From Hyphomicrobiaceae bacterium (GTDB taxonomy: Bacteria; Pseudomonadota; Alphaproteobacteria; Rhizobiales; Hyphomicrobiaceae): a stretch of 32,000 bases of DNA. The notes below the pieces were generated by a model. It saw only the letters and a program-made list of their open reading frames with translations. It was not told the origin of the DNA and did no database searches. Each line of letters begins with the position of its first letter. Positions within the stretch are counted from its first letter, which is position 1. Positions 4,774 through 31,376 of the stretch are shown in pieces. The translations under genes were made by a program, and so were the position numbers. Location of the stretch: assembly GCA_036821845.1 (NCBI GenBank), contig DAISIT010000002.1, positions 77,850 through 109,849 on the forward strand. Direction: 5' to 3'.

Positions 4774-6263
4774 TTTTCTTTGTATCCCTCGAGGGCGAAG
4801 TAGGTGACGCGGCGCGGCTTGCCGGCGCCGGCCCGAAGCTCCACGGTGCGGATCTCGCGTACGGTCTCGAAGCGCCGCGTGATGTGATCCGGCTTGGGCG
4901 AGAGGCTGACCAGCAGAACGGGGCCCTTGATCTCGCTCGTAAAGGGCCGGGTCAACTCGAAGTGGTCTTGCGGGACCGGCCCCTCGCGCCAGGCGAGTAC
5001 GCGCCCCGGCTTATCCCGCATGTAGTACAGCAATTCCGCCGTAACAGATCTCTCGTCGGCGACGACGGCGGCATAGGGCGTGCCGGCACTCGCGCCCTTT
5101 GCATATTCGTCGGCCGTCGCCGCGCCGAGCGCACGCCAGCCGAGTGTACGCGAATAAGGGTCGACGCCCGACGGCAACGCGAAGCGCCCGGCGAAGATCG
5201 CCGCCGCCGCCAGCGCCGCCGCCAGCACGATGTGCAGGGCGAACGACGACTTGAGCCAGCCCCAATCGAGATTGCGCACCATGGTCGCGACGACCAGCAC
5301 GGTTGCAGCGACATACGACAACGCCGCCCAGTTGGCATGGGCGCGTGACACGAACGCCTGCGCCGTGATGACGACGACCACCGGCAGCGCAAACGACAGC
5401 AGCAGCCGGTCGGCGTCGGGCAGGCCGTCGCGCCACGCCCGCCACGTGACCACACCGAGGCTCGCGAACAGGATCGGCCCGAACACACCGAACTGCGCCG
5501 CGACGAACTCCAGTGCCTTCAGCGGATTGATCAGCCCGCCGTGCCATTTGGCATTGTCGGCGGTATGAGCGAAGGTGGCGAACTTGTGCGCCTGGTTCCA
5601 CAGCAGGTTCGGCGCGATCAGCGCCATGGCGATGACAACCGCCACCCAAAGGCGCGGGTCCCTCAGTAGGCCGCGCTCGCGCTTCGTCGCGATGAGGTAG
5701 ATGCCGAGACAGAGCGCGAACCACACCATTGCATACTTCGCGTTGAGGCCGAGCCCGAACGCCACGCCGAGCAGCAGCGCCGGCCACCACGCGCGCGTAT
5801 CGCGCATCGCCACCAGCGCGTAGAGCGACAGCGCCCAGAAAAACAGCAGCGGCACGTCGGTCGAAATAATGCCCGCCGAAACGCTGACGCCCGGCAGCGT
5901 CGCGAAGGCCAGCGCCGACAGCGCACCGGTGCGGGTGTCGTAAAGCCGCCGCCCGATCAGGAACGCGACCAGCGCCGTCAGTGTGTGCACGATCGGCGAG
6001 GAAACCCGGACGCAGAATTCCCCGTCGCCACACACCGCCGTCGTGCCGGCGATCATCCAGGCGATCAGCGGCGGCTTCGAATAGTAGCCCGCGGCCGGCG
6101 TCTGCGCCCACGACCAGTATTGCGCCTCGTCGAAGAACAGGTCGGTTCCGCTGAACTTCAGCGCGGCGAGGCGAAAGGCCAGCAGCGCACCGAGCGCCAG
6201 CAACAGCATCAGGCCCCAGCGGGCGTCGTTACCCACGCCGCTGGCGCGATCCGTCGGCGTCAT
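4770..6263 (-). CDS. ArnT/PMT-like polyprenyl-phosphate-sugar dependent glycosyltransferase (GT39/GT83-type, multi-pass membrane protein)
   Basis: In-frame ATG at 6263 (MTPTDRAS...) is followed by the DEAQYWSWAQTP...YYSKPPLIAWMI motif, about 10 TM helices and a soluble C-terminal domain. The upstream 364 codons of track ORF 4770..7355 overlap the real + strand GT2 gene and are Arg/Ala-rich, so I trimmed them. Confidence 0.85.
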   Translation of the reverse strand: MTPTDRASGVGNDARWGLMLLLALGALLAFRLAALKFSGTDLFFDEAQYWSWAQTPAAGYYSKPPLIAWMIAGTTAVCGDGEFCVRVSSPIVHTLTALVAFLIGRRLYDTRTGALSALAFATLPGVSVSAGIISTDVPLLFFWALSLYALVAMRDTRAWWPALLLGVAFGLGLNAKYAMVWFALCLGIYLIATKRERGLLRDPRLWVAVVIAMALIAPNLLWNQAHKFATFAHTADNAKWHGGLINPLKALEFVAAQFGVFGPILFASLGVVTWRAWRDGLPDADRLLLSFALPVVVVITAQAFVSRAHANWAALSYVAATVLVVATMVRNLDWGWLKSSFALHIVLAAALAAAAIFAGRFALPSGVDPYSRTLGWRALGAATADEYAKGASAGTPYAAVVADERSVTAELLYYMRDKPGRVLAWREGPVPQDHFELTRPFTSEIKGPVLLVSLSPKPDHITRRFETVREIRTVELRAGAGKPRRVTYFALEGYKEK

Positions 6264-6482
6264 GTTCCCCGGTTCTCCCGCTGCCGATAGCCGCGCCCTG
6301 CGGCTTCCCGGCCACGAACGCCTTTCTGGGTGATTTACTAGGTTGAGGGCCGCGCGGGAAGACTGGTAGTCTCCGCCGCGCCTGAAGTGCCGGGGCCGAT
6401 GCGGCTCCCCGGCCCATGGGTATTGGTGCCGCCGAAGTCTCGCAGCGTCAGCGCGGCGCCGGCCTGGCAACGAAGGACCGAC

Positions 6483-7289
6483 ATGCGCATCTCCGTCGTC
6501 ATTCCAGCTCTGAACGAAGCCGGCAACATCGGCCGGCTCGTCGAGGAGACCTACGCGCACGTCCCGGCCGACACGCTGGCCGAGGTGATCGTGGTCGACG
6601 ACGCCAGCACCGATGCGACCGGGGCCGAGGTGAAAGCGCTGATCGCCGGCGGCAAGCACCCCGGATTGCGCTACCTGCGCCATGGCACCCGCAGCGGCCA
6701 GAGTGCGGCGCTCCGTTCTGGCATCACCGCCGCCAGCAGCGCCGTCATCGCCACCATGGACGGCGACGGCCAGAACGACCCGCGCGATATCCCCAAGCTG
6801 GTTGCCCGCCTCGCCGCTCCCGGCACGCAAGGTCCGGCTCTCGTCAACGGCTGGCGCACCTCGCGCAAGGACACCGGCTCCAAGCGGTGGGCGTCGAAAG
6901 CCGCCAACTGGATCCGCGACTCCGTGCTGAAGGACGATTGCCCCGACACCGGCTGCGGTATCAAGGTGTACTGGCGCGAGGTGTTCCTGCGACTGCCGTT
7001 CTTCACCAGCATGCACCGCTATCTGCCGGCGCTGTTCCAGACCTACGGCCACGAGGTGGCCTACGTGCCGGTCAACGATCGGCCGCGTCAGGCCGGCGTT
7101 TCCAAGTACAATAACCTCAATCGCGCCCTCGTCGGCCTCTACGATCTGGTCGGCGTCACCTGGATCAGAAAGCGCACCAAAATACCGGCGATCGTCGAGG
7201 GTACGCCGGCTTTGGCAGCGAACACCGGCATGGCAGCGCCGCGCATCACGGAGACGGCGGACAGCGGGCGCGGCAGCGACCGGGGCTAA
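6483..7289 (+). CDS. GT2 polyprenyl-phosphate glycosyltransferase (ArnC / Dpm1-like)
   Basis: MRISVVIPALNEAGNI...VIVVDDASTDAT...MDGDGQNDP are the classic GT-A/DxD signatures of ArnC/Dpm1-type enzymes. The gene is divergent from the ArnT-like gene. The start is trimmed to the ATG at 6483. Confidence 0.85.
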   Translation: MRISVVIPALNEAGNIGRLVEETYAHVPADTLAEVIVVDDASTDATGAEVKALIAGGKHPGLRYLRHGTRSGQSAALRSGITAASSAVIATMDGDGQNDPRDIPKLVARLAAPGTQGPALVNGWRTSRKDTGSKRWASKAANWIRDSVLKDDCPDTGCGIKVYWREVFLRLPFFTSMHRYLPALFQTYGHEVAYVPVNDRPRQAGVSKYNNLNRALVGLYDLVGVTWIRKRTKIPAIVEGTPALAANTGMAAPRITETADSGRGSDRG

Positions 7290-7459
7290 CGCCCGTGCGC
7301 ATCGGGCGGGCGATCGCGAGCCTGTGGACTGGCCGGCAGCGGCGCGCTTTGGCACTTGCGTCGCGGGCGCGGTTGGCGCCTGACACTGGCGTCGAGAGGC
7401 TGAACATCGGCCCCGTATCTCTGGGCCCCGGGCACGCTCACGAGCGAAGTGAGGATCAC

Positions 7460-7837
7460 ATGGACTTCATCGCCGGCTACGGTACGCTTCTCATGGCGAA
7501 GATGTCGGCATGGTGGGGCGGCATGACCCCGCTCGACCGCATCTGGCTCGGTATCGGCATGTTCGGGCAGCTGATGTTCACCGGCCGATGGTTCGTGCAG
7601 TGGATCGCCACCGAAAAGGCGCGCCGCTCCGTGGTGCCGGCGACGTTCTGGTACTTCAGCTTCTTCGGCGGACTGCTGGTGCTCGCCTACGGCTTCTATC
7701 GCGCTGATCCGGTCATCATCATCGGTCAGTTCGGCGTCTTCATCTATGCGCGCAACATCTACTTCCTGCTGCGCAACCACCACGAGACCGCGGCTACCGA
7801 CAAGCACACCTCGCCGCCGGAACTGGCGGCGGACTAA
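7460..7837 (+). CDS. Lipid-A-disaccharide synthase N-terminal domain (LAB_N) family small membrane protein
   Basis: ATG at 7460 follows gagga. The product has GQLMFTGRWFVQWIATEKARRSVVPATFWYFSFFGGLLVLAYGFYRADPVIIIGQ, the duplicated LAB_N-type motif. Confidence 0.7.
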   Translation: MDFIAGYGTLLMAKMSAWWGGMTPLDRIWLGIGMFGQLMFTGRWFVQWIATEKARRSVVPATFWYFSFFGGLLVLAYGFYRADPVIIIGQFGVFIYARNIYFLLRNHHETAATDKHTSPPELAAD

Positions 7838-8078: not shown

Positions 8079-8155
<77 letters not shown>

Positions 8156-8224: not shown

Positions 8225-8438
8225 GTGTCCGCACTGTGTCCGTTTTTAGGGCCATTCAGAAACACGCGTGCCGCATTGCGTCATCACTATGCATCTTCTA
8301 TCATCCACCAAATGATGTTATTCTGTCTAAGCTGCAAGGCTCGCTCAATCAGCTTGTTCAAGTATCATCTTTTTTCACCAACCGCTGTTCACTTGGTGGA
8401 ATGGTGCCTTAGAATAGGAACCAGGGGCGTCGTGTACT

Positions 8439-9308
8439 TTGAAGATAAGTGTTGTTATCCCTGTCTTTGAAAGAAAATTACAAATCCGCGAAGCGGTAAA
8501 TTCATGTCTATGTCAAACTTTGCCTCCGCATGAGGTGATTGTCGTCGATGATGGTTCGGCAGTGCCGATAACGTTCGAAATATTCGGTTCGTACTACGAA
8601 AGATTGAAAATTGTTCGACTAGAAGTAAATCGTGGTGCAGCTGCGGCTCGACAGGCCGGCGTGGATGCTGCGTCGGGCGATTGTATCGCTTTTCTCGATT
8701 CGGACGATATTTGGCTGCCGAATAAGCTTGAGATTCAGGTTTCCCGTTTGGAGCGAGAGCCTTACAGGAACGTCCCGGTGGCGATCGCCTGCGGGTGGCG
8801 AACGTTGCCTGAGGTCGGCGCACTATCCCAACAGGTGATTCCCCGCGATAGCGAAAGCTATTTGGATTTTGCAAGCGGTTGCTGGTTTGCGCCGGGAAGC
8901 ACGCTTCTAATTCCTCGCTGGGTGTTAGTTGCGGTCGGGCCCTTCGATAAGGACCTCAGGCGTCTTGAAGATTTTGACTGGTTCCTTCGCTTCGCTCTCG
9001 TCGGAGGGGCGCTCAAAGTTGTTCCTGAAACTTGCGCGATCATCTCTATTGGGCGGCGCAGTCGGCTGGCAGATGTGGAAAGCGCGAGTAAGAAAATTGA
9101 GGGCAAGCTTGCCAAGATCACGGAACCCTTGGTGAGCGCGCATTTTCGCCATTCCGCAAGGGCATACCTTTCGCTCGAGATGGCCAAAGCCGCCCAAAAT
9201 CAGGGCCACCTTGTCTTGATGGCTTTTTACATGATCAAGTCCCTGTTCCTTAGACCGCGCCTGAGGCTGGCCTTGAAACAGTGGTGGCCTGTTAGACGGA
9301 AGGTTTGA
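8439..9308 (+). CDS. GT2 family glycosyltransferase (289 aa)
   Basis: Apparent TTG start. (M)KISVVIPVFERKLQIREAVNSCLCQT...VIVVDDGSAVP...FLDSDDIW are GT-A fold signatures. The gene is low in GC. Confidence 0.8.
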   Translation: MKISVVIPVFERKLQIREAVNSCLCQTLPPHEVIVVDDGSAVPITFEIFGSYYERLKIVRLEVNRGAAAARQAGVDAASGDCIAFLDSDDIWLPNKLEIQVSRLEREPYRNVPVAIACGWRTLPEVGALSQQVIPRDSESYLDFASGCWFAPGSTLLIPRWVLVAVGPFDKDLRRLEDFDWFLRFALVGGALKVVPETCAIISIGRRSRLADVESASKKIEGKLAKITEPLVSAHFRHSARAYLSLEMAKAAQNQGHLVLMAFYMIKSLFLRPRLRLALKQWWPVRRKV

Positions 9309-9418
9309 GACCATGGCGCGGCTGCACAGGCATGCTTGATCAATTAAAATTCCTCGTATGAGGGAAAGAAGTCCATTACTTAATCGGTGCCGGTCCATCG
9401 GCTCGTGAGGAGTTCCCG

Positions 9419-10654
9419 GTGATGCTCATGCCAAACCCGCAGTACATGAAGCATCGTCTGCAACGTATCGTTTCGAACTATGGGCTTGGTGTTGCCCTTC
9501 GGATCATCGCGCACCGGCTTCTTTTGAAACCACTGATCCCTCTGATGCAGCCCTTGGCTCGTCGCCGGCTGTCGCGCTGGATTTCTGAAGCCGACTCGAA
9601 TCGCGTCATTCTGATCCGATCCACCCTGGACTTGGCTTATCCCTACCGGCAGCGGGTCCATCACATGGCCCTGGAACTGGCCCGGCAGGGCTGGCGCGTG
9701 GTGTTCGTTACGCCGTCCACGGGGCATGATCCCGTGCTTATCGCGGCGGGCGGCCCCAACGGGATCGTCGTCACACCTCACGGTGAGGTGGCGATGACGC
9801 TTGTTGACCGGCCAGCGTACCTCGCCCTATCGACCGACACGACACTGGGCCAGGCTGACATCGACCGCGTGCTCGCCCGTGGCGGGCGGGTGATATACGA
9901 CTACATCGACCATATGGACGACGCCGTCAGCAGCCATCCGATCCCGGTGGAGCGGATGCGACTGCACGAGCGGCTCTTGGCCGACGAAGAGAACGTCCTG
10001 GTGCTCGCGACCGCCGATGCGCTGATGCAAGACGTTGCTTCCCGGCGCCGGCGCAACATGCTGCTGGTGACCAATGGCGTCGATGTGGAGCGATTCAAGG
10101 GTGTCGCGCGGGTTGCGACGGGGCTTCGCGCTGACTTTGCTCGGATCGTTGCTCGCGGCCGCCCGCTGCTCGGCTATTACGGGTCGTTAGCGAGCTGGTT
10201 CGACTACGGCCTCGTGCGGGAGCTGGCCGAGGCCCGGCCGGGCTTCGACGTGGTGCTCGTCGGCCTGGATCTCGACGGCACCGGAACCGCCCTCGCCGGC
10301 CCGCCCGACAACCTCTTCGTGCTACCCGCCATGGCTTACGAGGATCTCCCCCGACATGCCGCCTGGTTCGACGTGTGCCTCGTGCCTTTCGTGGTGAACG
10401 ACATCACTCTCGCGACCTCACCGTTGAAGATCTTCGAGTACATGGCTCTAGCTAAGCCGACCGTGTCCACCGACCTGCCGGAATGCCGCAAGTACCGCTC
10501 CGTCCTCATCGCCGACGCGGACAGTTTCGCACATGCCTGCGACAGCGCGCTCTCCCTGAAGGATGACCCCGCCTTTCAGGCGATCGCGCTCGCGGAGAGC
10601 GAGAAGAACAGCTGGGGGCGGAAGGTGGGGGATTTCATCCAAGCGGCGAAGTAA
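9419..10654 (+). CDS. GT-B fold glycosyltransferase (GT1/GT4-like, 411 aa)
   Basis: The C-terminal motif SPLKIFEYMALAKPTVSTDLPE is of E-x7-E type. gaggag lies 6-9 nt upstream of GTG 9419 / ATG 9422. It is homologous to residues ~655-995 of the 1251-aa protein. Confidence 0.8.
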   Translation: MMLMPNPQYMKHRLQRIVSNYGLGVALRIIAHRLLLKPLIPLMQPLARRRLSRWISEADSNRVILIRSTLDLAYPYRQRVHHMALELARQGWRVVFVTPSTGHDPVLIAAGGPNGIVVTPHGEVAMTLVDRPAYLALSTDTTLGQADIDRVLARGGRVIYDYIDHMDDAVSSHPIPVERMRLHERLLADEENVLVLATADALMQDVASRRRRNMLLVTNGVDVERFKGVARVATGLRADFARIVARGRPLLGYYGSLASWFDYGLVRELAEARPGFDVVLVGLDLDGTGTALAGPPDNLFVLPAMAYEDLPRHAAWFDVCLVPFVVNDITLATSPLKIFEYMALAKPTVSTDLPECRKYRSVLIADADSFAHACDSALSLKDDPAFQAIALAESEKNSWGRKVGDFIQAAK

Positions 10655-10715
10655 GCGCCAGAAGTCGCAGAGGGACTATAGTTGACGTCCCTATGACGCG
10701 CTACCGCCATGAGCA

Positions 10716-13700
10716 CTACACAGGCGGTGGCTTCAACAAATTGATTTCACGATACCAAGAATTCCTGAATGTCTCAGAATTTCTTTTAAAAAGCGCTTGG
10801 TACTCCGCAGATCCCGAACCCGCACCCGTTGTTTGATGCGGCTGATGCCGGATACCAGAAAGGTCACGATAGGCGAGTTCGTACCCTAAACTCTTTATGC
10901 GCAAGGCAAAATCTGTATCTTCGAAACAAGTCGGGTCATATCGCTCATCGAAGCCCCCGGTCCGCATGAGAATATCTCGGCGCGCGAAAAGCCCTCCTGT
11001 TCCGATGTAGTGCACATCAGTACGAAATCCGCGCATCACATACTCGTGGTTGTCAGTTCCACGCTTTGGCAGATAGTCGACGATCGGTCCTCCGAGATGA
11101 TCTGCCTTAAGATCAAACCAGCCAGCTGCCCAGCCAACCGCGCCAATCTTATGGTTTTCTTGCAGAATACTCAGCGCTTCTGCAAAGCCGAACTCGCTCG
11201 TGAACCATTGATCGCTGTCAAAGAAAGCAATGAATTCTCCCGAACTCCGCGACAGACCGATATTGCGCCCGGACGAGCAGCCATTTTTTTCATTCCTTAT
11301 GAGGATGACGTCAGGATGTTTTTCGCGCACCATGGCGGGGCCATTGTCGTGACTGCAGTTATCAACAACAATTATTTCCTTTAGATATTTCGATGCATGC
11401 AGCTTTAAGGTGGTCAGGCACCGATCAATTATCCTCTCATTGTTGTGCATGAGAATGATCGCCGATATGCAGCTTACACCAGGAAGACGCGCGAGTTCTG
11501 CGGCGCGCTGCCCCCAAGTGTTCTCGGAAATGAAAAGATCCACTGAGCTCCGGATGGCGGGAGGCACTTGACACAGACGCGCGAAATGGCCGGGATCTTC
11601 CGCAAACGACACATTTGGATAGTCGGCAATCTCGGGTAACCTCGTCGCGATGACCGGCTTACCCATTGCAAGATACTCAAAGATCTTTATAGGTGACACG
11701 GCATCTGAAATTTTGCCTGGGATAAATGGTAGGAGCGCAGCGTCGCAATGCTGCAGATATGCTGGAAGCTGATCAATCAGCCTCGGACCAATAAGCTTGA
11801 CATTGCTCGGCATCGAAATGCCGGGAGGGATATCTCCAATCAGTATGATGTCAGTTCCGGGACATGCGAGCGCCGCTTCCTCAATGTAATTCCAGCCAAA
11901 CCACTCACCATATAGCGAGCCATAATAGAGAAGTGTCGGCCGAGCCGGATCATACTCAGACGGACGAGGCCAGAACCTATAATGGTCAAATATTGAATCG
12001 TTCACAGCATTCGGAAGGTAGAGTGCGTCAGCGCGCCCTTTTTCGACAAGAGAATCGACTAGTTTCCGTGCAGTTCCAACAACAACATCGGATTTCTGGA
12101 CAAATTCATCGTAGATTTCTTCACGGAACCAGTCTCCGCCTAACGACGTGTCCCACGCGTCGATGACCTCAAATACCGTCCGGTAACTACGGTTCCGCGC
12201 CTCTTCAAGCCAAGGGCGAAATCGATCGACTGGCGCCTGAAATATAACAACGGCATTTTCGCCGAGAGTCGAAAGCAAATTGCCCGGTTCAGTGTTGTCA
12301 AGAAACCGATGCTCAAGGCGAGGAAGATTGATGTCACTATCAACCTGTGCGCCGATCTCGAAATCGTACTTTCTAAATGCATGTAGATATACAACACGAA
12401 AACCTGCATTTAGTAGAACGCGTGTGATCTGAGCACTCCTCTGACCGCCTCCAACGTCATCAAATGGGAGGGTGGCAAGCATCAGCACGGTGACTGGATG
12501 TAAAATACGAACCGATTTATCTTCGGCGGCCGTCCAATGTTCATGATTATTCGAGCGTTTTGTTACTTTTATCTTATGGACGACCCTTTTGTAAACCCAA
12601 CGAGATGTAGCAAGCAAACCTGAGCTTCGCGTCTGGTGGTAGAGAAACTTCGTGACGGAGATCAAGCGTGAAAGGTGTGTCATAGCAGTCCGAACGGGAG
12701 CCGTTATCGTCCAAGACGTCGAGCGCTGAAGAGCACCGACGAGGTACTCCAGATCATTCCGCCGCTGGTCGACCGCAGCGAGCTGCATACGAGACGCTTC
12801 TAGGGCCGCCTGAACGGAGGACAGCGCGGCCTGAGTAGCGGAGAGCTGAGCCGTAGCCGCGGACAACTCGGATTGATATGCGGTCGCCGAAGCGGCTGCA
12901 CTTTCCAACTCGTCTTTAAGCTTCGCTCGCTCATCATCAGCCGTTCGAAGAGCTGCCTCAAGCTGATCGCGCTCCTCTTGGAATTTTTGGTGTGCCTCGA
13001 ACAACGCCTGAGACGCGACTTCGAGCTGTGCCTCAATACGTTCCTTGTCGCTTGCAGCCTCGGCGAGACTGGTACGGGCGGCCTCTAGATGCTCCTCGGC
13101 CTCTTGGGCTCGCATCGTTTCAACCTGCAAGCGTTGCGAGAACAGAGCCGCAGCCTGGATAACGTCGTCGCGCTCCGCCCTGAGGCCGTCACGGATCGCC
13201 GCGAACTCATCTTGAAGGTGGCTGATCTCTTGGTGGAGGGACGCGATCGCGGCTTGGTTTTGCGCGCGGGCGGCGCTCTCAGGGATCACGGGGCACCCCG
13301 TCAGCCCCTCTGCCAAGCGCGCCAACTCCTCGTCCGCCCAGACCGGCGCGTCCACGAGGCCGCGCAAACGAACGGCGTCGAGGAGCGCCTGGACGAGCGG
13401 GCTTTCGAGGGCCGGGAGAGTGTTGACGTAATCCAAGTAGGAGGCCCACAGCGCTCGCTCGTCCCGATGGGCCGCGATCCACGGGCGCAGGCGGTAACGC
13501 TCGGGATGACGCGCGAGCCCTTCCAAGTCGGCTGCAAGGGACGGATCGTCAAGCGTCGGCAGCCCTCGACCCGACAGGTTCCAGAACGCCGCCTCTTTAA
13601 GCTGCGCCTCGGCCAACAAACCTTTCACGCCGTCATAGCCGACCAAGAGGCACGGTTTGTCCCGAGCCGCCGCCTCCAGCAGCACGCGCCCCATGCCCGC

Positions 13701-14471
13701 CACTATCGAGTAATCTGCCATGACGTTCGGCAGGTCCGACCGCCAGCCGCATAAGCGGACGAAGGATGCCGCCGGTTCGACCTCCACCCGAGACCGCAAA
13801 GCCTCGATCGCCGGACCATCCCCGAAGACGTGGAGCGTTCGGCCAAGGGACTTCGCTCTATCGATGAGGTCGAGCAACCCCACGAGCTTGGCGTCATCGA
13901 TCCGGCCCGCCCACATCCAGGGCGCATCGTCTGCGGCTTGGACGAGATCCTCCGTGGGCAGCGCGACGCCATTGGGCAGCAGCAACGTATCGTTACTGCC
14001 GGCGGCCTTGCACAGCAGCTGAACCTCCGGGGAGACACAAAGGACGCCGCTGGCGCATCGGAGCGCGGCCGAGCGGAAGATCAGGTCCGGAAGCGATCCC
14101 AGCCCCCCCGAAACCGACAGAGGACCGTGCAGGGTGAGCACCAAGGGCAGGCGCGCTTGCTGCGCCACGAACAAGCCTACGAGCGTGCTGAAGAATGGAT
14201 GGGCATGGATCGCATCGGCGCCCTCGCTGCGGGCGAATGCCACGAGCCGGGCGATTGTCTCGCGCAGCTCAAGGAACGTGACGCCGCTCCCCATCGGCAC
14301 ACCGGTGATAGTAGCGACGAATATCCCGTCGGGAACATCGTCAGCCGAGGACCCGGTCGCGAGGACCAGATCCACTCCCTGCGAGGCCAGAACGCGGGCT
14401 TGCCCGGCGACCTGGCTTTCCAATCCTCCGCCTCGGAAGGTCTCGCTGATTACAAGGATTTTCTTTGTCAA
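10716..14471 (-). CDS. Multidomain polysaccharide glycosyltransferase: GT-B (GT4-like), ~185-aa coiled coil, GT-B, GT-A (GT2)
   Basis: aa 1-390 (MTKKILVISETFRGGGLE...) are GT4-like. aa ~398-583 are a proline-free Ala/Glu/Gln/Leu heptad-like stretch. aa ~655-995 are GT-B (SPIKIFEYLAMGKPVIATRLPE). aa ~1000-1251 are GT2 (IIVVDNCSHD, FFDSDQW, CFEDTDF). The TTG start lies 1 nt after the wzt stop. Confidence 0.85.
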   Translation of the reverse strand: MTKKILVISETFRGGGLESQVAGQARVLASQGVDLVLATGSSADDVPDGIFVATITGVPMGSGVTFLELRETIARLVAFARSEGADAIHAHPFFSTLVGLFVAQQARLPLVLTLHGPLSVSGGLGSLPDLIFRSAALRCASGVLCVSPEVQLLCKAAGSNDTLLLPNGVALPTEDLVQAADDAPWMWAGRIDDAKLVGLLDLIDRAKSLGRTLHVFGDGPAIEALRSRVEVEPAASFVRLCGWRSDLPNVMADYSIVAGMGRVLLEAAARDKPCLLVGYDGVKGLLAEAQLKEAAFWNLSGRGLPTLDDPSLAADLEGLARHPERYRLRPWIAAHRDERALWASYLDYVNTLPALESPLVQALLDAVRLRGLVDAPVWADEELARLAEGLTGCPVIPESAARAQNQAAIASLHQEISHLQDEFAAIRDGLRAERDDVIQAAALFSQRLQVETMRAQEAEEHLEAARTSLAEAASDKERIEAQLEVASQALFEAHQKFQEERDQLEAALRTADDERAKLKDELESAAASATAYQSELSAATAQLSATQAALSSVQAALEASRMQLAAVDQRRNDLEYLVGALQRSTSWTITAPVRTAMTHLSRLISVTKFLYHQTRSSGLLATSRWVYKRVVHKIKVTKRSNNHEHWTAAEDKSVRILHPVTVLMLATLPFDDVGGGQRSAQITRVLLNAGFRVVYLHAFRKYDFEIGAQVDSDINLPRLEHRFLDNTEPGNLLSTLGENAVVIFQAPVDRFRPWLEEARNRSYRTVFEVIDAWDTSLGGDWFREEIYDEFVQKSDVVVGTARKLVDSLVEKGRADALYLPNAVNDSIFDHYRFWPRPSEYDPARPTLLYYGSLYGEWFGWNYIEEAALACPGTDIILIGDIPPGISMPSNVKLIGPRLIDQLPAYLQHCDAALLPFIPGKISDAVSPIKIFEYLAMGKPVIATRLPEIADYPNVSFAEDPGHFARLCQVPPAIRSSVDLFISENTWGQRAAELARLPGVSCISAIILMHNNERIIDRCLTTLKLHASKYLKEIIVVDNCSHDNGPAMVREKHPDVILIRNEKNGCSSGRNIGLSRSSGEFIAFFDSDQWFTSEFGFAEALSILQENHKIGAVGWAAGWFDLKADHLGGPIVDYLPKRGTDNHEYVMRGFRTDVHYIGTGGLFARRDILMRTGGFDERYDPTCFEDTDFALRIKSLGYELAYRDLSGIRHQPHQTTGAGSGSAEYQALFKRNSETFRNSWYREINLLKPPPV

Positions 14472-14472
14472 T

Positions 14473-15798
14473 TCAGGAGCTCCGAACGAAGTCGATGCTG
14501 ACGGGAAGGTAGGCTATGCCGGTTGCCTTGATTCTGGGTTCGGATACCTTGAATATAATCGCGTCGCTTCGTTTGTCGAGATACTGCATCTCGGCTCGCG
14601 ATATCGGCGACGCTATCGCGAGGGACACAAAGTATATTCCTTCGCATAGCGATAGAACAACATCAAAGACAACAGTTATTGTTTCGCCAGATTTTATGTT
14701 TGTCTGGTTGTTATTGTGGTACAGCGTACTCGTGCCAAATCCGTGCACGCCCTCGACAGTCTTGATGCTCAAGCCGACCTGCATCTCGTCCAGATCCTTG
14801 AGGCATCTCACCTGCATTGTGATGCGGGCCTTGTTGCCTGGATGGAAGACCTCCTGCTGCTCGTCACGGGAATCGGTCATGGAGCATGAGACGATCTGCG
14901 CCCGGACTTCCTCGTGCACTTCCGCTGCGCCGTCCTCGGTTGGCGGGGTCTCGGCCGCAGAGGTGGAAACCTCAGCAGCAGGCGCCGCGTAATCGGCGAG
15001 CGCCTCTCGGTTCAGAATCTGCAGGTATGCTTTCTCATCGGCATAGAGCAGGGCGTGGTACTGGTCCACGATGATGTTGCTGGGTCCGATGCCGTGAACG
15101 ACCCCCTGATGCAGCAGAACGGCGCGCTGGCAGAAGCGTTCGATCGTCGTGGTGGAATGCGTCACCAGCAGGATGGACGCACCCCGCTCCCGGAGGGTCT
15201 CGAAGCGATCGAAGCACTTGCGCTGGAACTTCTCATCGCCGACGGCCAGCGCCTCGTCCACGATAAGGATATCCGGATCGATACAGGCCTGAACCGCGAA
15301 GGCGACGCGGACGTACATCCCGCTTGAGTAAGTCTTCACCGGCCTGTCGAAGAACGCCCCGATATCCGCGAAGGACTCGATCGACGCCATCCGATCCGCG
15401 ATCTCGCGATCGGACAGGCCGAGAATTTGGGCATTCAGGATGGCGTTCTGGCGGCCCGTGAATTCCAGGTTGAAGCCGGCGCCGAGTTCGAGCAGCGCGC
15501 CGATGCGACCGCGAACCGCCACATCGCCTCCAGTCGGTGAGAGGGTTCCGCAGATGATCTGCAGCAGGGTCGACTTGCCCGATCCGTTGCGGCCGATGAT
15601 CCCGACGGTCTCCCCCGGTCGCACGCTGAAGCTCACGTCGCGCAGCGCGTGGTGCTCCTTAAAGTAGGCTCGCGGCTCGCGCCCAATCGCCCGCATCAGG
15701 CGGGGCACGAGCATCTGCTTCAGGCGCGCGGAAGGGTGGTCATAGATGAGGTAGGACTTGCTGAGGTTCCTTACCTCGATCACGGCCTCAGAGGACAT
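14473..15798 (-). CDS. wzt: Polysaccharide ABC exporter ATP-binding protein with a C-terminal carbohydrate-binding domain (Wzt type)
   Basis: Has Walker A GRNGSGKST, signature YSSGM, Walker B ILIVDEAL, then an Ala/Pro/Glu linker and a ~145-aa beta-rich C-terminal domain like Wzt_C. It overlaps the wzm stop by 11 nt. Confidence 0.9.
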   Translation of the reverse strand: MSSEAVIEVRNLSKSYLIYDHPSARLKQMLVPRLMRAIGREPRAYFKEHHALRDVSFSVRPGETVGIIGRNGSGKSTLLQIICGTLSPTGGDVAVRGRIGALLELGAGFNLEFTGRQNAILNAQILGLSDREIADRMASIESFADIGAFFDRPVKTYSSGMYVRVAFAVQACIDPDILIVDEALAVGDEKFQRKCFDRFETLRERGASILLVTHSTTTIERFCQRAVLLHQGVVHGIGPSNIIVDQYHALLYADEKAYLQILNREALADYAAPAAEVSTSAAETPPTEDGAAEVHEEVRAQIVSCSMTDSRDEQQEVFHPGNKARITMQVRCLKDLDEMQVGLSIKTVEGVHGFGTSTLYHNNNQTNIKSGETITVVFDVVLSLCEGIYFVSLAIASPISRAEMQYLDKRSDAIIFKVSEPRIKATGIAYLPVSIDFVRSS

Positions 15799-16609
15799 CG
15801 GCGAAAGCCTTTCGTGTCTTGGCGAACCAGAGATAGCCCAGGATCGCGACCGCGCCGCCCACGCCGGCGTAAATCGCCAACCCGACCGCGTCGGGAGCCT
15901 GGCCGAAGAGCAGGGCGCGCCGCGCCTGCTCCATCGGGAACGTCAGCGGGTTGAGCCAGATCCAGGCACGAAATTCCTCCGGCAAGGTCCCGGCAGGGTA
16001 GAACAAGGGAGACAGGAACATCAGCATCGTAATGGCTATACCGACGACCTGGGCGATGTCGCGCACGAAGGTGCCAAAGGACGCGAGAAACCACATCAGC
16101 CCAAGCATGAGCATCACGAATGGCGCCAGGATGACAGGAAACCACAAGCCCACCCAGTGGAGGTCGACCTGGAGCAGGAAAGCCATGATGAGGAAGACCG
16201 CGATGCCTACCGCCAGGTTGAACAGTGCGACGAGCAGGGCCACCAGGGGCAGGATCTCGAGCGGGAATACCAATTTCTTCACATAGTTGGCGTTCGCGAG
16301 GATCAACGTGGGCGCGCGGCCGACGGCCTCGCTGAACAAGTTGTAAACCAGGAGACCAATGAACAAGGCCATGGTGAAGTTGATCGGGGCCTGCCCGGTT
16401 TCCGCCCACCGGGTCCGAAAGAGGGTCCCAAACACGAAGCTGTAGATCGCGACGGTCAATAGCGTCTGGACGACGTACCAGCCGATGCCGCCGAACGACC
16501 CCTTGTAACGCGCCTCGATTTCCCGTCGGGCCAGCGCCATGATGAGGGGCCAGCGGTTCAGGAGGCCGCTAATCCCCGTCCTCGCTTCGGCTGTTGCTTG
16601 CACGCTCAT
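15788..16609 (-). CDS. wzm: Polysaccharide ABC exporter permease (ABC-2 type, Wzm)
   Basis: Six-TM ABC-2 pattern with the ALARREIEARYKGSFGGIGWYVVQ motif. I chose the ATG at 16609 (MSVQATAE...) because it forms an ATGA overlap with the wecB stop and has ggagag upstream. The track ORF extends to 16654. Confidence 0.85.
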   Translation of the reverse strand: MSVQATAEARTGISGLLNRWPLIMALARREIEARYKGSFGGIGWYVVQTLLTVAIYSFVFGTLFRTRWAETGQAPINFTMALFIGLLVYNLFSEAVGRAPTLILANANYVKKLVFPLEILPLVALLVALFNLAVGIAVFLIMAFLLQVDLHWVGLWFPVILAPFVMLMLGLMWFLASFGTFVRDIAQVVGIAITMLMFLSPLFYPAGTLPEEFRAWIWLNPLTFPMEQARRALLFGQAPDAVGLAIYAGVGGAVAILGYLWFAKTRKAFADVL

Positions 16610-17736
16610 CTCTCCAGGCTTCCGTTGGCGTCCCGCGTCAGGAAGTTGTAGCACAGGTCCACGATACGGCGGGCCGCCTGCCCGTCCCCGTAGGGCGAAC
16701 CGCCCTTGGCCATTCTAGCGTATTCCGCCTCGTCCGTGAGCAGACGCTTCGTCTCGCGGACGATCGTCGCCCTATCGGTTCCAACCAAACGAGCGACCCC
16801 CGCCTGTACAGCTTCGGGACGTTCTGTTTCCTCACGCAAGACCAGAACGGGCTTGCCTAAGGCTGGCGCCTCCTCCTGTATGCCGCCACTGTCGGTGAGA
16901 ATCAACGTGGAGCGCTTCATCAGCATTACGAGATCCTGGTAGTCAGCCGGCGGGATTAGGTGCACCCGGTCCATGCCCGTCAGTGTGGCTTCAACCGGCC
17001 CGCGGATGTTCGGGTTGGGATGAACCGGATAGACAAACTCTAGATCAGGAAGACTGTCGTGGAGATCCCGGATCGCGTTGCAGATGGACAGGATAGGCTC
17101 ACCAAAGTTCTCGCGCCGATGCGCGGTCACCAGAATGAGGCGGCGGTCTGGCCTTGTCGGATAGGGGCATTGAATGTCGCGCTTCGCAACGTCCAGAAGG
17201 GCGTCAACCACGGTGTTCCCGGTTGTGTAAACGACGCTCTCCCGCACGCCCTCAGCAAGAAGATTGGCCCGTGCCTGTTCGGTCGGAGCAAAGTGGATAC
17301 CGCTCACCAAGCTTGTGACGACACGGTTCAATTCCTCCGGAAAGGGACGATGGATATCATGGGTACGAAGACCTGCCTCGACATGACCCACTGATATCTG
17401 CCTGTAGAATGCCGCTAGTGCTGCTACCATCACGGATGTTGTATCTCCCTGCACAAGCATCAGGTCGCATCCCTGAGAAGCCAATAAAGGATCAAACTTC
17501 GCAAATATCTTGCTGGTCAGCCCGGCGAGGCTTTGATTTGGTTCCATTACTTCGAGATCGTAATCAATCTGAATTGCAAAAAGTCTGAATATTTGTTGCA
17601 CCAATTCGCGATGCTGGCCAGTGCTCACGACAGTTACATTCGCCCAATCTTGTTTCAAAAACTCTTTGATAACTGGAGCCATCTTGATACACTCAGGTCT
17701 GGTGCCTACCAAACACACAACTTTAAATCTCTTCAC
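16606..17736 (-). CDS. wecB: UDP-N-acetylglucosamine 2-epimerase (non-hydrolysing)
   Basis: KVVCLVGTRPECIKMAPV, GLRTHD, HVEAGLRT and DSGGIQEEAPALGKPVLVLRE are WecB/MnaA hallmarks. I prefer the GTG at 17736 (aagga 9 nt upstream, giving 376 aa) over the TTG at 17796 in the track. Confidence 0.88.
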   Translation of the reverse strand: MKRFKVVCLVGTRPECIKMAPVIKEFLKQDWANVTVVSTGQHRELVQQIFRLFAIQIDYDLEVMEPNQSLAGLTSKIFAKFDPLLASQGCDLMLVQGDTTSVMVAALAAFYRQISVGHVEAGLRTHDIHRPFPEELNRVVTSLVSGIHFAPTEQARANLLAEGVRESVVYTTGNTVVDALLDVAKRDIQCPYPTRPDRRLILVTAHRRENFGEPILSICNAIRDLHDSLPDLEFVYPVHPNPNIRGPVEATLTGMDRVHLIPPADYQDLVMLMKRSTLILTDSGGIQEEAPALGKPVLVLREETERPEAVQAGVARLVGTDRATIVRETKRLLTDEAEYARMAKGGSPYGDGQAARRIVDLCYNFLTRDANGSLER

Positions 17737-17779
17737 GGTAAAAAATCCTTGCTTGTATTCATTCTTCAAGTTGGGTTGG

Positions 17780-17806
17780 ATTATACAAAACACCAAATGA
17801 ATTCAA
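17780..17806 (-). promoter_or_regulatory. Candidate sigma70-type promoter for the wecB-wzm-wzt-GT operon
   Basis: The minus strand reads TTGAAT (17806-17801), then 15 nt, then TATAAT (17785-17780), about 45 nt upstream of the wecB GTG. It lies in the AT-rich junction segment. Prediction by eye only. Confidence 0.3.
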
Positions 17807-17922
17807 TCACAAAATTGAATCTTTTCGCCCGGGGCAGCGCCTGCTTTGCGGCCAGCGGCGAAGATCGCCGCGGTGGCGACGACCACCGCGACGATGAGGG
17901 CCAGGGCGAACCAGCCGGTCAC
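17803..17922 (-). CDS. 39-aa single-pass membrane peptide (possible lysis accessory), below the ORF-track size cutoff
   Basis: The GTG at 17922 overlaps the upstream stop (GTGA). The product is VTGWFALALIVAVVVATAAIFAAGRKAGAAPGEKIQFCD. Its last ~6 codons lie in the AT-rich junction DNA. Confidence 0.4.
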   Translation of the reverse strand: MTGWFALALIVAVVVATAAIFAAGRKAGAAPGEKIQFCD

Positions 17923-18116
17923 TTGCTCGCCCCGGTGATCCCGGCGCGCAGGGTGCCGAGGCCGAGCGCGGCGAGGATCTGGGTGAGCCAGTCGGAACCG
18001 ACATCGACGCCTGGCACATCGATGCCGAGGCCCTTCTCGACGACGACCACCAGCACGAGCACGGCGGCGATGATGTAGGTGCGGTAGCCCGCACCGAACT
18101 GAAGAACGGCGTTCAT
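17919..18116 (-). CDS. Holin-like small membrane protein (65 aa, two TM segments)
   Basis: ATG at 18116 with aaggag upstream. The product MNAVLQFGAGYRTYIIAAVLVLVVVVEKG...WLTQILAALGLGTLRAGITGASK lies immediately downstream of the endolysin. The rest of track ORF 17919..18494 is Arg/Ser-rich antisense junk. Confidence 0.55.
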   Translation of the reverse strand: MNAVLQFGAGYRTYIIAAVLVLVVVVEKGLGIDVPGVDVGSDWLTQILAALGLGTLRAGITGASK

Positions 18117-18141
18117 GGAAATCTCCTTGGTTGGGGTTGGA

Positions 18142-18711
18142 TCAGGCCTCGTTGACGGAGAGGCTTCCGCTCGCGGCGAGGGCGATGGGTCGAACGTTGA
18201 CGGGCTGGGCGCGATAGGGCGGGCGGCGCACCGCCACGAGCCGGTTGCGCGACAGCCGCGTGATCGAGACGCGATCGGATTGATTGCCGCCGAGAACGTG
18301 GAAGGCAGAGGCGTCGTGGCCGACATAGAGGCCGACGTGCCCGCCGCCCTTACGCTTGAAGACGAGCACGTCGCCCAGCGCCGCAGCGCCCTTCGGAACC
18401 GACGTGCCGAACGCCGCCCATTCGAGCGCCGAGAGATAGAGGCGCGGCGGATTGCGCTCGGGGCGGCGTTCGATGTTGGCGCGGTGCGCGACAATCGCCA
18501 TGAACAGGCCGCACCACGGGATCGCGTCGTGGCGATAGGCGCCTGAATACACGCGGCCGATGCCGGCAGCTTCGAGTTCCGCTTGCCAGCCGATGATCTT
18601 CGGATTGTCGGCGTCTCCCGGTGCTTCGAGGATGCCGTAGTCCTTCAACGCCTCGACGATCATGCGCGGGCCGGGCTCGGCTTCGAGCCATCGGTATTGG
18701 GCAGGCAACAT
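18142..18711 (-). CDS. Phage endolysin, NlpC/P60-CHAP-like peptidase (TIGR02594-type)
   Basis: MLPAQYRWLEAEPGPRMIVEALKDYGILEAPGDADNPKIIGW...IPWCGLFMA...GGGHVGLYVG...VLGGNQSD gives the Cys/His catalytic pattern of this family. GGAGG lies 6 nt upstream of the ATG. Confidence 0.8.
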   Translation of the reverse strand: MLPAQYRWLEAEPGPRMIVEALKDYGILEAPGDADNPKIIGWQAELEAAGIGRVYSGAYRHDAIPWCGLFMAIVAHRANIERRPERNPPRLYLSALEWAAFGTSVPKGAAALGDVLVFKRKGGGHVGLYVGHDASAFHVLGGNQSDRVSITRLSRNRLVAVRRPPYRAQPVNVRPIALAASGSLSVNEA

Positions 18712-18721
18712 GGTGACCTCC

Positions 18722-18754
18722 AGAAAAGACGAAGCCCGCCGGAGGGGCGGGCTT
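18722..18754 (-). terminator. Rho-independent terminator between the tail-accessory genes and the lysis cassette
   Basis: A 9-bp GC stem aagcccgcc (18732-18740) / ggcgggctt (18746-18754) has a 5-nt loop. On the minus strand it is followed by cgtcttttct. Confidence 0.55.
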
Positions 18755-18789
18755 TCGGTCGGGTTGCGGTTGGGGTTGATGTCGGCGGA

Positions 18790-19122
18790 TCAGGTGTGTT
18801 TGCGGCCGTCCTCATTGCTTTCCAGGCGGTCGATGCGTTCGCGGAACTCACCCATCGTCGCTTTGATCTGGGCGATGTCGGTGCGGGCCTCGGCCACGAC
18901 CCTGCGCCCGGCGATGTCGTTCGAGACATCCTCCTTGATCGCGGTGATCTCCTTCGCGTTGGCGGCAAACGTGGCGTCAATCAGCGTGAAGCGCTGTGAC
19001 AACCACCACGCCACGCGGACGAGGAAGACGATCAGGATCAGAAGTTCGAGGATCAGGCTGCCGACAACGACCCACGTCAGCGTGAGCGCGTCGGCGCCGA
19101 CCGAGATCGGAGCGGCGGACAT
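18790..19122 (-). CDS. Membrane-anchored coiled-coil protein (110 aa), phage, unknown function
   Basis: ATG with aaggaa upstream. The TM helix LTLTWVVVGSLILELLILIVFLVRVAWW is followed by a charged helical region (ITAIKEDVSNDI...IAQIKATMGEFRERIDRLES). Confidence 0.6.
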   Translation of the reverse strand: MSAAPISVGADALTLTWVVVGSLILELLILIVFLVRVAWWLSQRFTLIDATFAANAKEITAIKEDVSNDIAGRRVVAEARTDIAQIKATMGEFRERIDRLESNEDGRKHT

Positions 19123-19146
19123 CGAGGGTTCCTTCTTTGGTAGGGA

Positions 19147-19845: not shown

Positions 19846-19857
19846 TTTGATTGTCCT

Positions 19858-23799: not shown

Positions 23800-23872
23800 A
23801 GCGGATCAGGTGCTTTTTCTGTTTTGTTACTGGGGCTATTGATTGAAACAACTAACGGGACGGTTTGAATGC

Positions 23873-24136
23873 ATGTTCAGGGGGTTCTTCGATAAGTGGC
23901 GCGCGAGCCGGGCTCGCTGGAGAGCTGACGCACGGCGCTTGATTGCGTTCGAAAAGCGAACGGCATTCCATGCAGCACAAGTCGAGATCGCGCGGGCGCG
24001 GCACCGTGGCGATCGATCTGAAGCATGGCACTGGGCGAAGGTTGCTGCCGAAGTAGCGCGCATTTGCCCTGAAGCCGACCTCGATGTCGAACGGAGCGTT
24101 GAAGCGATTCGGAAGGCTGGGTTCAATTACCGGTAG
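23873..24136 (+). CDS. Opposite-strand small ORF (87 aa from ATG 23873; the track begins at TTG 23843), hypothetical moron
   Basis: This is the only non-shadow-looking + strand ORF in the prophage. Its composition is balanced (W, F, H, K, E). It fills a 327-bp gap between the g14-like and g15-like genes. GC3 is lower than its neighbours and the RBS is weak. Confidence 0.4.
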   Translation: MFRGFFDKWRASRARWRADARRLIAFEKRTAFHAAQVEIARARHRGDRSEAWHWAKVAAEVARICPEADLDVERSVEAIRKAGFNYR

Positions 24137-30037: not shown

Positions 30038-30079
30038 GGTGGCTCCTTCGGGGTTGGTCGGATTGTGGGGAAGGGAAGA

Positions 30080-31351: not shown

Positions 31352-31376
31352 GGGAATACTCCTGTCGTTGTTGGTT

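Follow-up and report, generated by a model that had tools for sequence, protein, structure and literature searches.

A predicted coiled-coil ruler between a candidate GT4-like chain terminator and a polymerase unit in an ABC-transporter-dependent glycan cassette

Gene order and anatomy of the 1251-residue protein

The window, i.e., the whole 32,000-nucleotide stretch of DNA that was analysed, contains a cassette in which wecB, wzm, wzt and one large glycosyltransferase gene follow each other on the minus strand and are joined by two convergent glycosyltransferase genes on the plus strand, so that Pfam recognises five glycosyltransferase modules in the locus. The first gene encodes a WecB/MnaA-like UDP-GlcNAc 2-epimerase (16606..17796, minus strand; Epimerase_2, E 1e-115); gene calls in identical contigs give it 376 aa, and its true start probably lies ~60 nt inside the open reading frame. 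Downstream lie wzm for an ABC-2 permease (15788..16654, minus strand; ABC2_membrane, E 7e-26) and wzt (14473..15798, minus strand; ABC_tran and Wzt_C). The first-pass annotation had ascribed a carbohydrate-binding C-terminal domain (CBM) to Wzt, and Wzt_C indeed matches aa 298-429 with an E-value of 4.9e-24.

The large open reading frame (10716..14471, minus strand) starts with TTG, is preceded by GGAG ~9 nt 5′ of this codon and begins 1 nt past the wzt stop codon; it is translationally coupled to both wzm and wzt. The convergent genes encode a 411-aa TuaH-like GT-B glycosyltransferase (9419..10654, plus strand; Glyco_trans_1_4), which is a candidate adaptor or branching enzyme, and a 289-aa GT2 glycosyltransferase (8439..9308, plus strand; Glycos_transf_2, E 2e-29). 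The cassette is flanked by a tRNA-Met gene on one side and by phage lysis and tail genes on the other, and its GC content deviates. No close relative of the prophage side was found among sequenced phages.

The large gene encodes a protein of 1251 aa that is present, identical, in two independent assemblies. It begins with a GT4-like GT-B module and a heptad helix; a basic amphipathic segment joins these to a second GT-B module, and a GT2 module forms the C-terminus. Pfam matches Glyco_transf_4 at aa 15-169 (57.7 bits, cut-off 28.5), Glyco_trans_1_4 at aa 874-950 and Glycos_transf_2 at aa 1003-1116 (E 2e-21). The open reading frame, the three glycosyltransferase modules, the helical stretch and the CBM of Wzt described in the first-pass annotation were all recovered at the same positions.

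The N-terminal module and its family

The N-terminal module (N-module; aa 1-395; 13287..14471, minus strand) is a divergent GT4-like GT-B domain and the proposed chain terminator. AlphaFold2 folds aa 1-400 as GT-B with a pLDDT of 93, and two Pfam models, Glyco_transf_4 and Glyco_trans_4_4, exceed their cut-offs; no Pfam model matches the C-terminal half separately. In Foldseek, the retaining GT4 enzymes SPS, MshA, HepE, BshA, PimA and WaaG rank highest (E 5e-15 to 1e-11), the best 50 matches are all GT4-type and related GT-B enzymes, and a profile of the module matches BshA with an E-value of 4e-13. Together, these results identify a GT-B fold with a GT4-type N-terminal domain.

Across sequences that are 30-48% identical, 36 residues of the module are invariant, including G15 and G16, H115, R190, K195 and E266, which are nucleotide-sugar-binding hallmarks. 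In GT4 enzymes, the Gly-Gly loop, the R...K pair and the second Glu of the EX7E motif bind the nucleotide diphosphate. This second Glu is E266, nearly all members have Ala (A258) in place of the first, and the motif of the region reads AGMGRVxLE. Because the first Glu is replaced by Ala family-wide, the chemistry of the module is perhaps atypical or the domain non-catalytic. In the latter case, a catalytically dead GT-B would serve as a sensor or docking site for the chain end, a nucleotide-sugar or a partner, and the cap would be made elsewhere or be absent. The missing Glu, the lack of a Pfam match for the C-terminal half and the occurrence of a Wzt without CBM at six loci (see below) all speak for a dead domain. 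We nevertheless consider this very unlikely, since the 36 residues, among them the diphosphate-binding Gly-Gly, R...K and second Glu, have been kept despite such low identity, and since the cassette was not found to encode a methyltransferase, kinase or Kdo transferase that could act as terminator instead.

We searched the profile of the N-module against 1.84 billion cluster representatives and obtained a family of ~524 clusters at 50% identity (E<=1e-30). Among the best 150 of these 524 matches, the module starts at about residue 1 in 149, and protein lengths are either ~340-560 aa or 570-1950 aa. The module either shares a polypeptide with varied glycosyltransferases or is encoded separately, in the manner of WbdD; stand-alone proteins of ~420-560 aa with a coiled coil and separate polymerases occur in Bordetella, Achromobacter, Aeromonas and E. 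coli. About 15% of the family representatives, such as a 399-aa protein of Chelativorans, are just 380-430 aa long, with a coiled coil that is short or absent. Further members occur in Gram-positive bacteria, where the one in Moorella adjoins an SLH-domain protein. Among plasmids the module had a single weak match only, and the split cassette borne by E. coli was not recovered from any of 5,426 complete E. coli genomes. A related gene pair sits among phage genes in locus L059.

Predicted coiled coil, basic segment and putative polymerase unit

The spacer that follows the N-module (aa 398-584; 12720..13280, minus strand) is the proposed molecular ruler. Its aa 398-583 contain no Pro, two Gly (G429 and G579), 24% Ala, 12% Glu, 11% Leu and 11% Gln. 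By a heptad score of our own design, not a published predictor, aa 398-584 form the sole coiled-coil-like stretch of the protein, with only three register blocks and a score 7 sd above shuffles of the same residues (reached by 0 of 300). AlphaFold2, run on aa 380-1251 as a monomer, predicts an unbroken single helix at aa 398-582, where pLDDT is only 50-78, and SMC coiled-coil models of NCBIfam match aa 404-576. An extended coiled coil is therefore predicted for the putative terminator-bearing protein; the absence of such a prediction had been named at the outset as an observation that would tell against a ruler. A coiled-coil-like stretch follows the N-module in 31 of the 32 homologs scored, and its length ranges from 29 to 368 aa.

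Between this helix and the polymerase lie the junction STSWTITAPVR and a basic amphipathic segment (aa 585-655; 12507..12719, minus strand) that is proposed to be membrane-proximal and may bind the membrane. It has 11 Lys/Arg and 1 Asp/Glu, is predicted by AlphaFold2 to form two helices and reaches a hydrophobic moment of 0.51 at aa 588-605, above the 95th percentile of the whole protein. The N-module is thus placed on one side of the helix, and the basic segment and polymerase on the other.

The middle GT-B module (aa 656-995; 11487..12506, minus strand) and the GT2 module (aa 996-1251; 10716..11486, minus strand) are the putative first and second polymerase modules. AlphaFold2 predicts a GT-B fold at aa ~661-994 and a GT-A fold at aa ~1002-1240, both mostly with pLDDT >90. 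The former matches an NCBIfam TuaH-like model below cut-off, has GumK as its best GT-B fold match and carries the motifs PFDDVGGGQ and SPIKIFEY, invariant in 29 homologs. The latter has GT2 matches in the PDB as well as GT-A fold matches and conserved FEDTD and DSD motifs, the DSD (within FFDSDQW) representing the DxD motif.

This two-module unit (MID+GT2) has homologs of 45-61% identity. Some are stand-alone proteins that begin with an equivalent basic leader; in about one third of the matches listed, the unit follows a SAM-methyltransferase that occupies the N-terminal slot of a 950-1060-aa protein. These fusions have the SWxxTxPxR junction motif in common with the window protein; the one from Stenotrophomonas contains a helical Glu/Ala/Gln-rich spacer and the same junction (SWRxTxPLR). 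Because orthologous units operate when the slot of the N-module holds a methyltransferase or is empty, this module is not needed for their polymerisation. The epimerase co-occurs with MID+GT2 under both terminator types; it was considered as the source of a ManNAc cap and rejected because it is equally present with MID+GT2 in methyltransferase-type loci.

Proposed cap recognition and mechanism, and relation to known rulers

We compared the Wzt proteins encoded at 60 N-module loci; the DNA retrieved contains a wzt for 46 of them, in most cases immediately upstream. A CBM of the window type was found in 38 of the 46, and 29 of these 38 have polymerases that are non-orthologous to that of the window. 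The CBMs of N-module loci match that of the window with 79-145 bits at 35-50% identity, and 18 residues are invariant across 37 CBMs. The remaining eight loci have a Wzt without a window-type CBM, and six of these, from Firmicutes, Bacteroidota, Legionella and a campylobacterial genome, lack any CBM. Among loci retrieved by polymerase similarity, all six with an N-module carry the window-type CBM, and all four methyltransferase loci with a CBM-bearing Wzt carry a different type. At the level of sequence covariation, the CBM type therefore tracks the N-terminal module and not the polymerase, as would be expected if its specificity were matched to the terminator over the repeat. When the CBM by itself served as query, a word-indexed homolog search returned just two matches.

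Based on these sequence patterns, we consider it rather probable that the cassette encodes a ruler system in which one polypeptide polymerises, measures and caps an ABC-transporter-dependent glycan by means of a GT4-like enzyme. The C-terminal unit (basic leader, TuaH-like GT-B and GT2) would act on the cytoplasmic side of the membrane, where it would extend a primer linked to undecaprenyl diphosphate by polymerising a repeat. The ~185-residue coiled coil, which would span ~27 nm if parallel and fully extended, would keep the N-module off the membrane. Only sufficiently long chains would then reach the N-module, which would stop elongation by adding a sugar to their non-reducing end, and the CBM of Wzt would recognise this cap and thereby restrict export to capped chains. 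The polymerase/ruler/terminator reading of the first-pass annotation held up in each element open to checking and is supported by three independent comparative observations: the architecture of the family (an N-module almost always at the N-terminus, then a coiled coil in the members scored, then varied glycosyltransferase sets), the occurrence of the same polymerase unit behind a methyltransferase, and a CBM type that follows the N-terminal module.

Alternatively, the N-module could be an ordinary polymerising, branching or adaptor glycosyltransferase that adds a third repeat linkage or a side-chain sugar, with the helix serving oligomerisation or as a scaffold and the CBM reading a feature of the repeat unit. 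The module does resemble a standard retaining GT4 enzyme, some family members have no coiled coil, the linkages made by the five glycosyltransferase modules are not allotted one by one, and polymerases with three glycosyltransferase modules exist (PMC11127046). However, orthologous MID+GT2 polymerases function with a methyltransferase or nothing in its place, and a single CBM type across 29 loci with non-orthologous polymerases is hard to reconcile with a CBM that reads the repeat. Moreover, the N-module is always located at the helix end opposite to the polymerase and basic segment, the place of every proven terminator (PMC11231755). We therefore regard an ordinary glycosyltransferase as unlikely, albeit less so than a dead domain.

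A close functional parallel of the proposed ruler protein is WbbB of Raoultella terrigena and Klebsiella pneumoniae O12, which likewise combines a terminator glycosyltransferase, a coiled coil and two polymerising modules in one polypeptide, is partnered with Wzm and a CBM-bearing Wzt, and terminates with a sugar instead of a methyl or phosphate group (PMC11231755, PMC9587256). The WbbB terminator is a GT99 beta-Kdo transferase, whereas the N-module is GT4-like and shares neither sequence nor fold relationship with it, and the window polymerase is composed of a TuaH-like GT-B and a GT2 GT-A module. No WbbB or GT99 chain was found for the 1251-aa protein among PDB phmmer matches with E<=1 or for the N-module among profile matches with E<=0.01 and the best 50 Foldseek matches, and no WbbB chain was among the best 50 fold matches of the polymerase modules. 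The term WbbB-like, used in the first-pass annotation, thus holds as a functional analogy and fails as homology: the window protein would work like WbbB without being its homolog. The donor of the N-module is likely an NDP-hexose type sugar and not CMP-Kdo.

In Klebsiella pneumoniae O7, ORF6 is an experimentally proven terminator-polymerase (PMC11231755) that fuses a methyltransferase-kinase, a coiled coil and two GT2 modules. The window protein is, as proposed, likewise a fused terminator, ruler and polymerase, and its polymerase unit occurs in many genomes in such a fusion behind a methyltransferase. Unlike in ORF6, the putative terminator of the window protein is a glycosyltransferase, and the window CBM clade differs from that of methyltransferase-type loci. 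In WbdD/WbdA of E. coli O9a and Klebsiella O3, the terminator is likewise distal and set apart by a coiled coil from an amphipathic region near the membrane, and this split layout is mirrored by the stand-alone N-module proteins. The window Wzt matches Aquifex Wzt and the O9a CBD weakly (30 bits; O9a CBD, E 2.4e-6), indicating a distant relationship. WbdD is, however, a kinase-methyltransferase that is paired with a GT4 mannosyltransferase as polymerase, whereas the window protein is fused. ORF7 of Klebsiella pneumoniae O4, a GT137 Kdo transferase, is again a chain-terminating glycosyltransferase on a coiled coil, but it depends on CMP-Kdo, adopts a non-canonical fold and reportedly escapes recognition by the Conserved Domain Database (PMC11231755), in contrast to the canonical GT-B of the N-module that Pfam GT4 models recognise. 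The first-pass annotation set the GT4-like module apart from GT99, kinase and methyltransferase terminators and omitted GT137 from its list (PMC11231755). The O-antigens of Aeromonas O11 and A. salmonicida were rejected as products of an N-module system, as their clusters use genuine WbbB (PMC4413209, PMC4483657).

The product of the cassette is most likely an O-polysaccharide. The same mechanism could instead make a capsule-like, teichuronic-acid-like or phage-borne serotype-converting glycan with another role, as hinted at by the TuaH/TuaG-like modules in the cassette (NCBIfam), the Gram-positive members including that of Moorella, the position between tRNA-Met and phage genes with deviating GC, and the phage-associated gene pair in L059. 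Homologous cassettes of Aeromonas, E. coli, Stenotrophomonas and Luteimonas are nevertheless located in loci typical of O-antigens, marked by rml genes, a WecA-like gene or flanks that are conserved between alleles, and the N-module had no match in 50,697 phage records, which leaves this the least probable of the alternatives considered.

The overall design is known, and the capping enzyme family is probably new. To our knowledge, only a few terminators have been proven to control chain length through a coiled-coil ruler, namely two Kdo transferases and enzymes with kinase and/or methyltransferase activity; a census of such systems, reportedly provided by Mann et al. in 2019 (Glycobiology), may already list the N-module family. 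We tentatively suggest that the N-module founds an undescribed family of chain-terminating GT4-like enzymes that is spread over many phyla, adds a non-Kdo sugar cap and has its own co-inherited clade of Wzt CBMs. Cap-writer and cap-reader might then be exchanged as a unit among polymerases by recombination within the coiled coil, sometimes on mobile elements near tRNA genes or prophages. If true, this would widen the cap repertoire to an ordinary nucleotide-sugar-derived residue and yield a sequence signature predicting capped glycans in Bordetella, Achromobacter, Stenotrophomonas, Comamonas, Aeromonas and some Gram-positive bacteria. The predicted coiled-coil-like stretches of 29-368 residues would then form a natural ruler set that, together with swappable modules, could serve the engineering of glycans of defined length.

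The sister cassette L142 shows how new combinations originate, through a sharp mosaic break within the large gene. Identity between the two cassettes is 94% for the nucleotide-binding domain (NBD) of Wzt, 89% for its CBM and 88% for the N-module, and it amounts to 57% for the coiled coil and 60-63% for the polymerase. Within the large gene of the window, GC3 drops from 0.79 to ~0.5. The separate 411-aa TuaH-like glycosyltransferase is kept in L142 at 80% identity, and the 289-aa GT2 enzyme is present there at 59%.

Layout of the protein and its helical segment

The large open reading frame next to wzt (10716-14471, - strand) encodes 1251 aa; its TTG start lies 1 nt past the wzt stop codon, GGAG stands ~9 nt upstream of that start, and the identical protein is present in two independently assembled public data sets. 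Pfam matches are a GT4-type N-terminal domain (aa 15-169), Glyco_trans_1_4 (aa 874-950) and a GT2 domain (aa 1003-1116). AlphaFold2 gave a GT-B fold for aa 1-400 (pLDDT 93) and, when aa 380-1251 were modelled, a GT-B module at aa ~661-994 and a GT-A module at aa ~1002-1240, both mostly with pLDDT >90. The first-pass annotation of a single 1251-aa frame with a GT4-like, a second GT-B and a GT2 module was confirmed by both approaches, and we regard this architecture as certain. The neighbouring wzt (14473-15798, - strand), for which a carbohydrate-binding C-terminal domain had been claimed, indeed encodes ABC_tran and Wzt_C domains (Pfam), and the large gene is very likely coupled to the ABC transporter.

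The N-terminal module (N-module, aa 1-395) is followed by a stretch (aa 398-583) with 0 prolines, two glycines and abundant Ala, Glu, Gln and Leu. Using a heptad-register score of our own scheme, which is not a published predictor, we found aa 398-584 to be the sole coiled-coil-like stretch of the protein; three register blocks suffice, and the score lies 7 sd over 300 same-residue shuffles. SMC coiled-coil models (NCBIfam) match aa 404-576, and in the AlphaFold2 model of aa 380-1251 a single unbroken helix spans aa 398-582 with pLDDT 50-78, as expected of a lone monomeric helix, followed by two more helices at aa 587-641. These results bear out the proline-free helical coiled coil that had been proposed.

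At the junction of helix and middle module lies the motif STSWTITAPVR, and the stretch behind it is strongly basic (11 Lys/Arg versus 1 Asp/Glu) and contains one amphipathic window that exceeds the protein's 95th percentile; we infer that it would be the membrane-proximal part. In the general form S-[ST]-S-W-[RKT]-[ILV]-T-x-P-[LIV]-R, the motif ends the helix in the window protein (aa 584-594, nt ~12690-12722) and in many homologs, ~70-90 residues ahead of PFDDVGGGQ, and is common to methyltransferase-type and N-module-type fusions.

The N-module and its proposed terminator slot

The best fold matches of the N-module were retaining GT4 enzymes (sucrose-phosphate synthase, MshA, HepE, BshA, WbnH, PimA and WaaG), to which it shows 15-19% identity and a TM-score of ~0.65. 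Its family profile matched BshA with an E-value of 4e-13, and no GT99 chain was among the profile matches. Across 23 members sharing only 30-48% identity, 36 residues are invariant, among them a Gly-Gly loop (G15 G16), H115, R190 and K195 as SRxDxxK, and E266; the family also conserves two motifs of its own, GYDGVKG and NFSGRG, and in the GT4 EX7E motif Ala stands where the first Glu would be. The middle module is a TuaH-like GT-B with GumK as best GT-B fold match, and the C-terminal module is a standard GT2.

A full-protein search found the N-module at the very N-terminus of all 32 close-to-distant homologs, with varying C-terminal parts, and 31 of the 32 homologs scored carry a coiled-coil-like stretch of 29-368 residues behind it. 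Searching 1.84 billion cluster representatives with an N-module profile returned 524 proteins at E<=1e-30; the module begins at ~residue 1 in 149 of the best 150 matches, which are either ~340-560 or 570-1950 aa long. The short form, in the stand-alone cases with full sequence examined, consists of N-module plus helix, a layout like that of WbdD, and these stand-alone proteins have a short basic tail with Trp at the end. Little or no helix is found in ~15% of family representatives. When one genome per species was scanned, 51 N-module loci were found, spanning Alpha-, Beta- and Gammaproteobacteria, Bacteroidota, Firmicutes, Acidobacteria, Myxococcota, Campylobacterota and others.

When the C-terminal 611 residues served as query, the middle and GT2 modules proved to form a common, well-conserved unit (45-61% identity) that exists in three forms: alone (~640-700 aa, e.g. 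in Citrobacter, E. coli and Aeromonas), behind an N-terminal SAM-methyltransferase in about a third of the matches listed (950-1060 aa, e.g. in Stenotrophomonas, Lysobacter, Pseudomonas and Cupriavidus), and, as in the window, behind the N-module. The Stenotrophomonas fusion, available in full sequence, has a helical Glu/Ala/Gln-rich spacer and an SWRxTxPLR junction as in the window protein. Because the terminator-polymerase of Klebsiella O7 is proven to have the methyltransferase-first layout (PMC11231755), the N-module can be placed in the terminator slot.

The window protein had been called WbbB-like. It shares with WbbB of Klebsiella O12 a single chain with glycosyltransferase terminator, ruler and two-module polymerase (putative roles in the window protein), as well as coupling to a Wzt with a carbohydrate-binding module (CBM) (PMC11231755), so that the analogy of layout stands; homology does not, because the GT99 domain that defines WbbB is absent. 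We would class the protein as a variant within the known coiled-coil ruler systems. In the literature consulted, the terminators with experimental proof are GT99, GT137 and enzymes with kinase and/or methyltransferase activity (PMC11231755). A GT4-like terminator, if true, would mean new cap chemistry. Further terminators are expected in the field; for this candidate, the family is clearly defined, a CBM clade matches it and the predictions can be tested directly. No experimental study of any member was found in the literature searched, and a 2019 bioinformatic census by Mann, Kimber and Whitfield may mention the family. We rejected the clusters of Aeromonas O11 and A. salmonicida as instances of this system, as genuine WbbB is used there (PMC4413209, PMC4483657).

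The protein most closely related to the polymerase half in the window (637 aa, 61% identity) lies in homologous locus L059 (8837-11914), directly after a 386-aa N-module protein without coiled coil; this pair sits between phage lysozyme and pectate-lyase-like genes at a local GC of ~0.47-0.55, and neither wzm nor wzt lies near it. The system is split in L057 (E. coli GCA_054820305.1) and L060 (Aeromonas rivipollensis), where it comprises rmlBDAC, wzm, wzt with CBM, N-module plus helix (471-473 aa), polymerase (669-671 aa) and wecB. The E. coli cassette adjoins RepA_C and IS66 genes and had no match in 5,426 complete E. coli genomes.

Covariation of the Wzt CBM with the N-module

We annotated all fetched loci by phmmer with the window proteins as queries. 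Wzt was present in the fetched DNA of 46 of the 60 N-module loci, mostly directly upstream, and in 38 of these 46 its CBM is 35-50% identical to that of the window (79-145 bits); against the window CBM (Wzt aa ~290-441), the E. coli O9a domain, whose structure is solved, reaches only 30 bits. The window-type clade (37 sequences) has 18 invariant residues, among them E349, Y360, Y389, Y406 and D408, and in 29 of the 38 loci the polymerase is non-orthologous to that of the window. When loci were collected solely by similarity of the polymerase, the window-type CBM was found in 6/6 N-module loci, and another CBM type in 4/4 methyltransferase loci with a CBM, where the polymerase is orthologous. 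None of the annotated loci had a window-type CBM without an N-module. The type of CBM therefore goes with the N-module rather than with the polymerase. Such covariation is expected if the N-module writes a feature that is read by the CBM, and it lends good support to the putative role of the N-module as chain terminator, which we consider probable.

Eight N-module loci have a Wzt without the window-type CBM, six of them without any CBM. The short Wzt proteins lacking a CBM (L003, L008, L020, L033, L037 and L046) come from Firmicutes, Bacteroidota, Legionella and a campylobacterial genome. Together with the members that have little or no helix, the eight loci indicate that the N-module can occur outside the full ruler-and-reader setting. 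Locus L050 has two tandem wzt genes, only one of which carries the window-type CBM.

UDP-GlcNAc 2-epimerase is encoded in 33 of the 60 N-module loci, and ManNAc was considered as cap sugar on this ground. This candidate was rejected: because the epimerase accompanies the polymerase unit equally in methyltransferase-type loci, its more likely role is in the backbone or adaptor.

A mosaic gene and its genomic setting

We compared the window with a sister cassette (L142) that has the same six genes. Identity is 94% for the nucleotide-binding part of Wzt, 89% for its CBM and 88% for the N-module, then 57% for the coiled coil, 28% for the post-helix segment and 60-63% for the two polymerase modules. 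GC3 within the large gene falls from 0.79 in the N-module to 0.65 in the helix and ~0.5 in the remainder, and the break in both measures lies near 12700-13300 within 10716-14471; there is thus a recombination joint within or close to the helix. On these sequence comparisons, the putative cap-writer and cap-reader move together and the polymerase is exchangeable.

In L142 (1155-2759), the sister cassette (P0002) adjoins a DUF3987 gene, typical of mobile-element replication modules. The low-GC cassette of the window (8400-17800) lies between tRNA-Met (8079-8155) and a same-strand prophage-like block (17900-31400) with an NlpC/P60 lysis-like gene, a small holin-like ORF, GTA_TIM host-specificity, BR0599, DUF2460, tail tube and a 1115-aa tape measure. 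The glycan cassette may be island or prophage cargo; the N-module was absent from all sequenced phages searched.

Beside the cassette, the - strand ORF at 4770-7355 (861 aa) is probably over-extended, because its PMT_2 match is limited to aa 426-586. The + strand frame at 6387-7289 encodes a bona fide GT2 (Pfam 1e-26) and is followed by a LAB_N membrane protein (7295-7837); together, the genes in 4770-7837 look like a Gtr-like three-component periplasmic glycosylation set.
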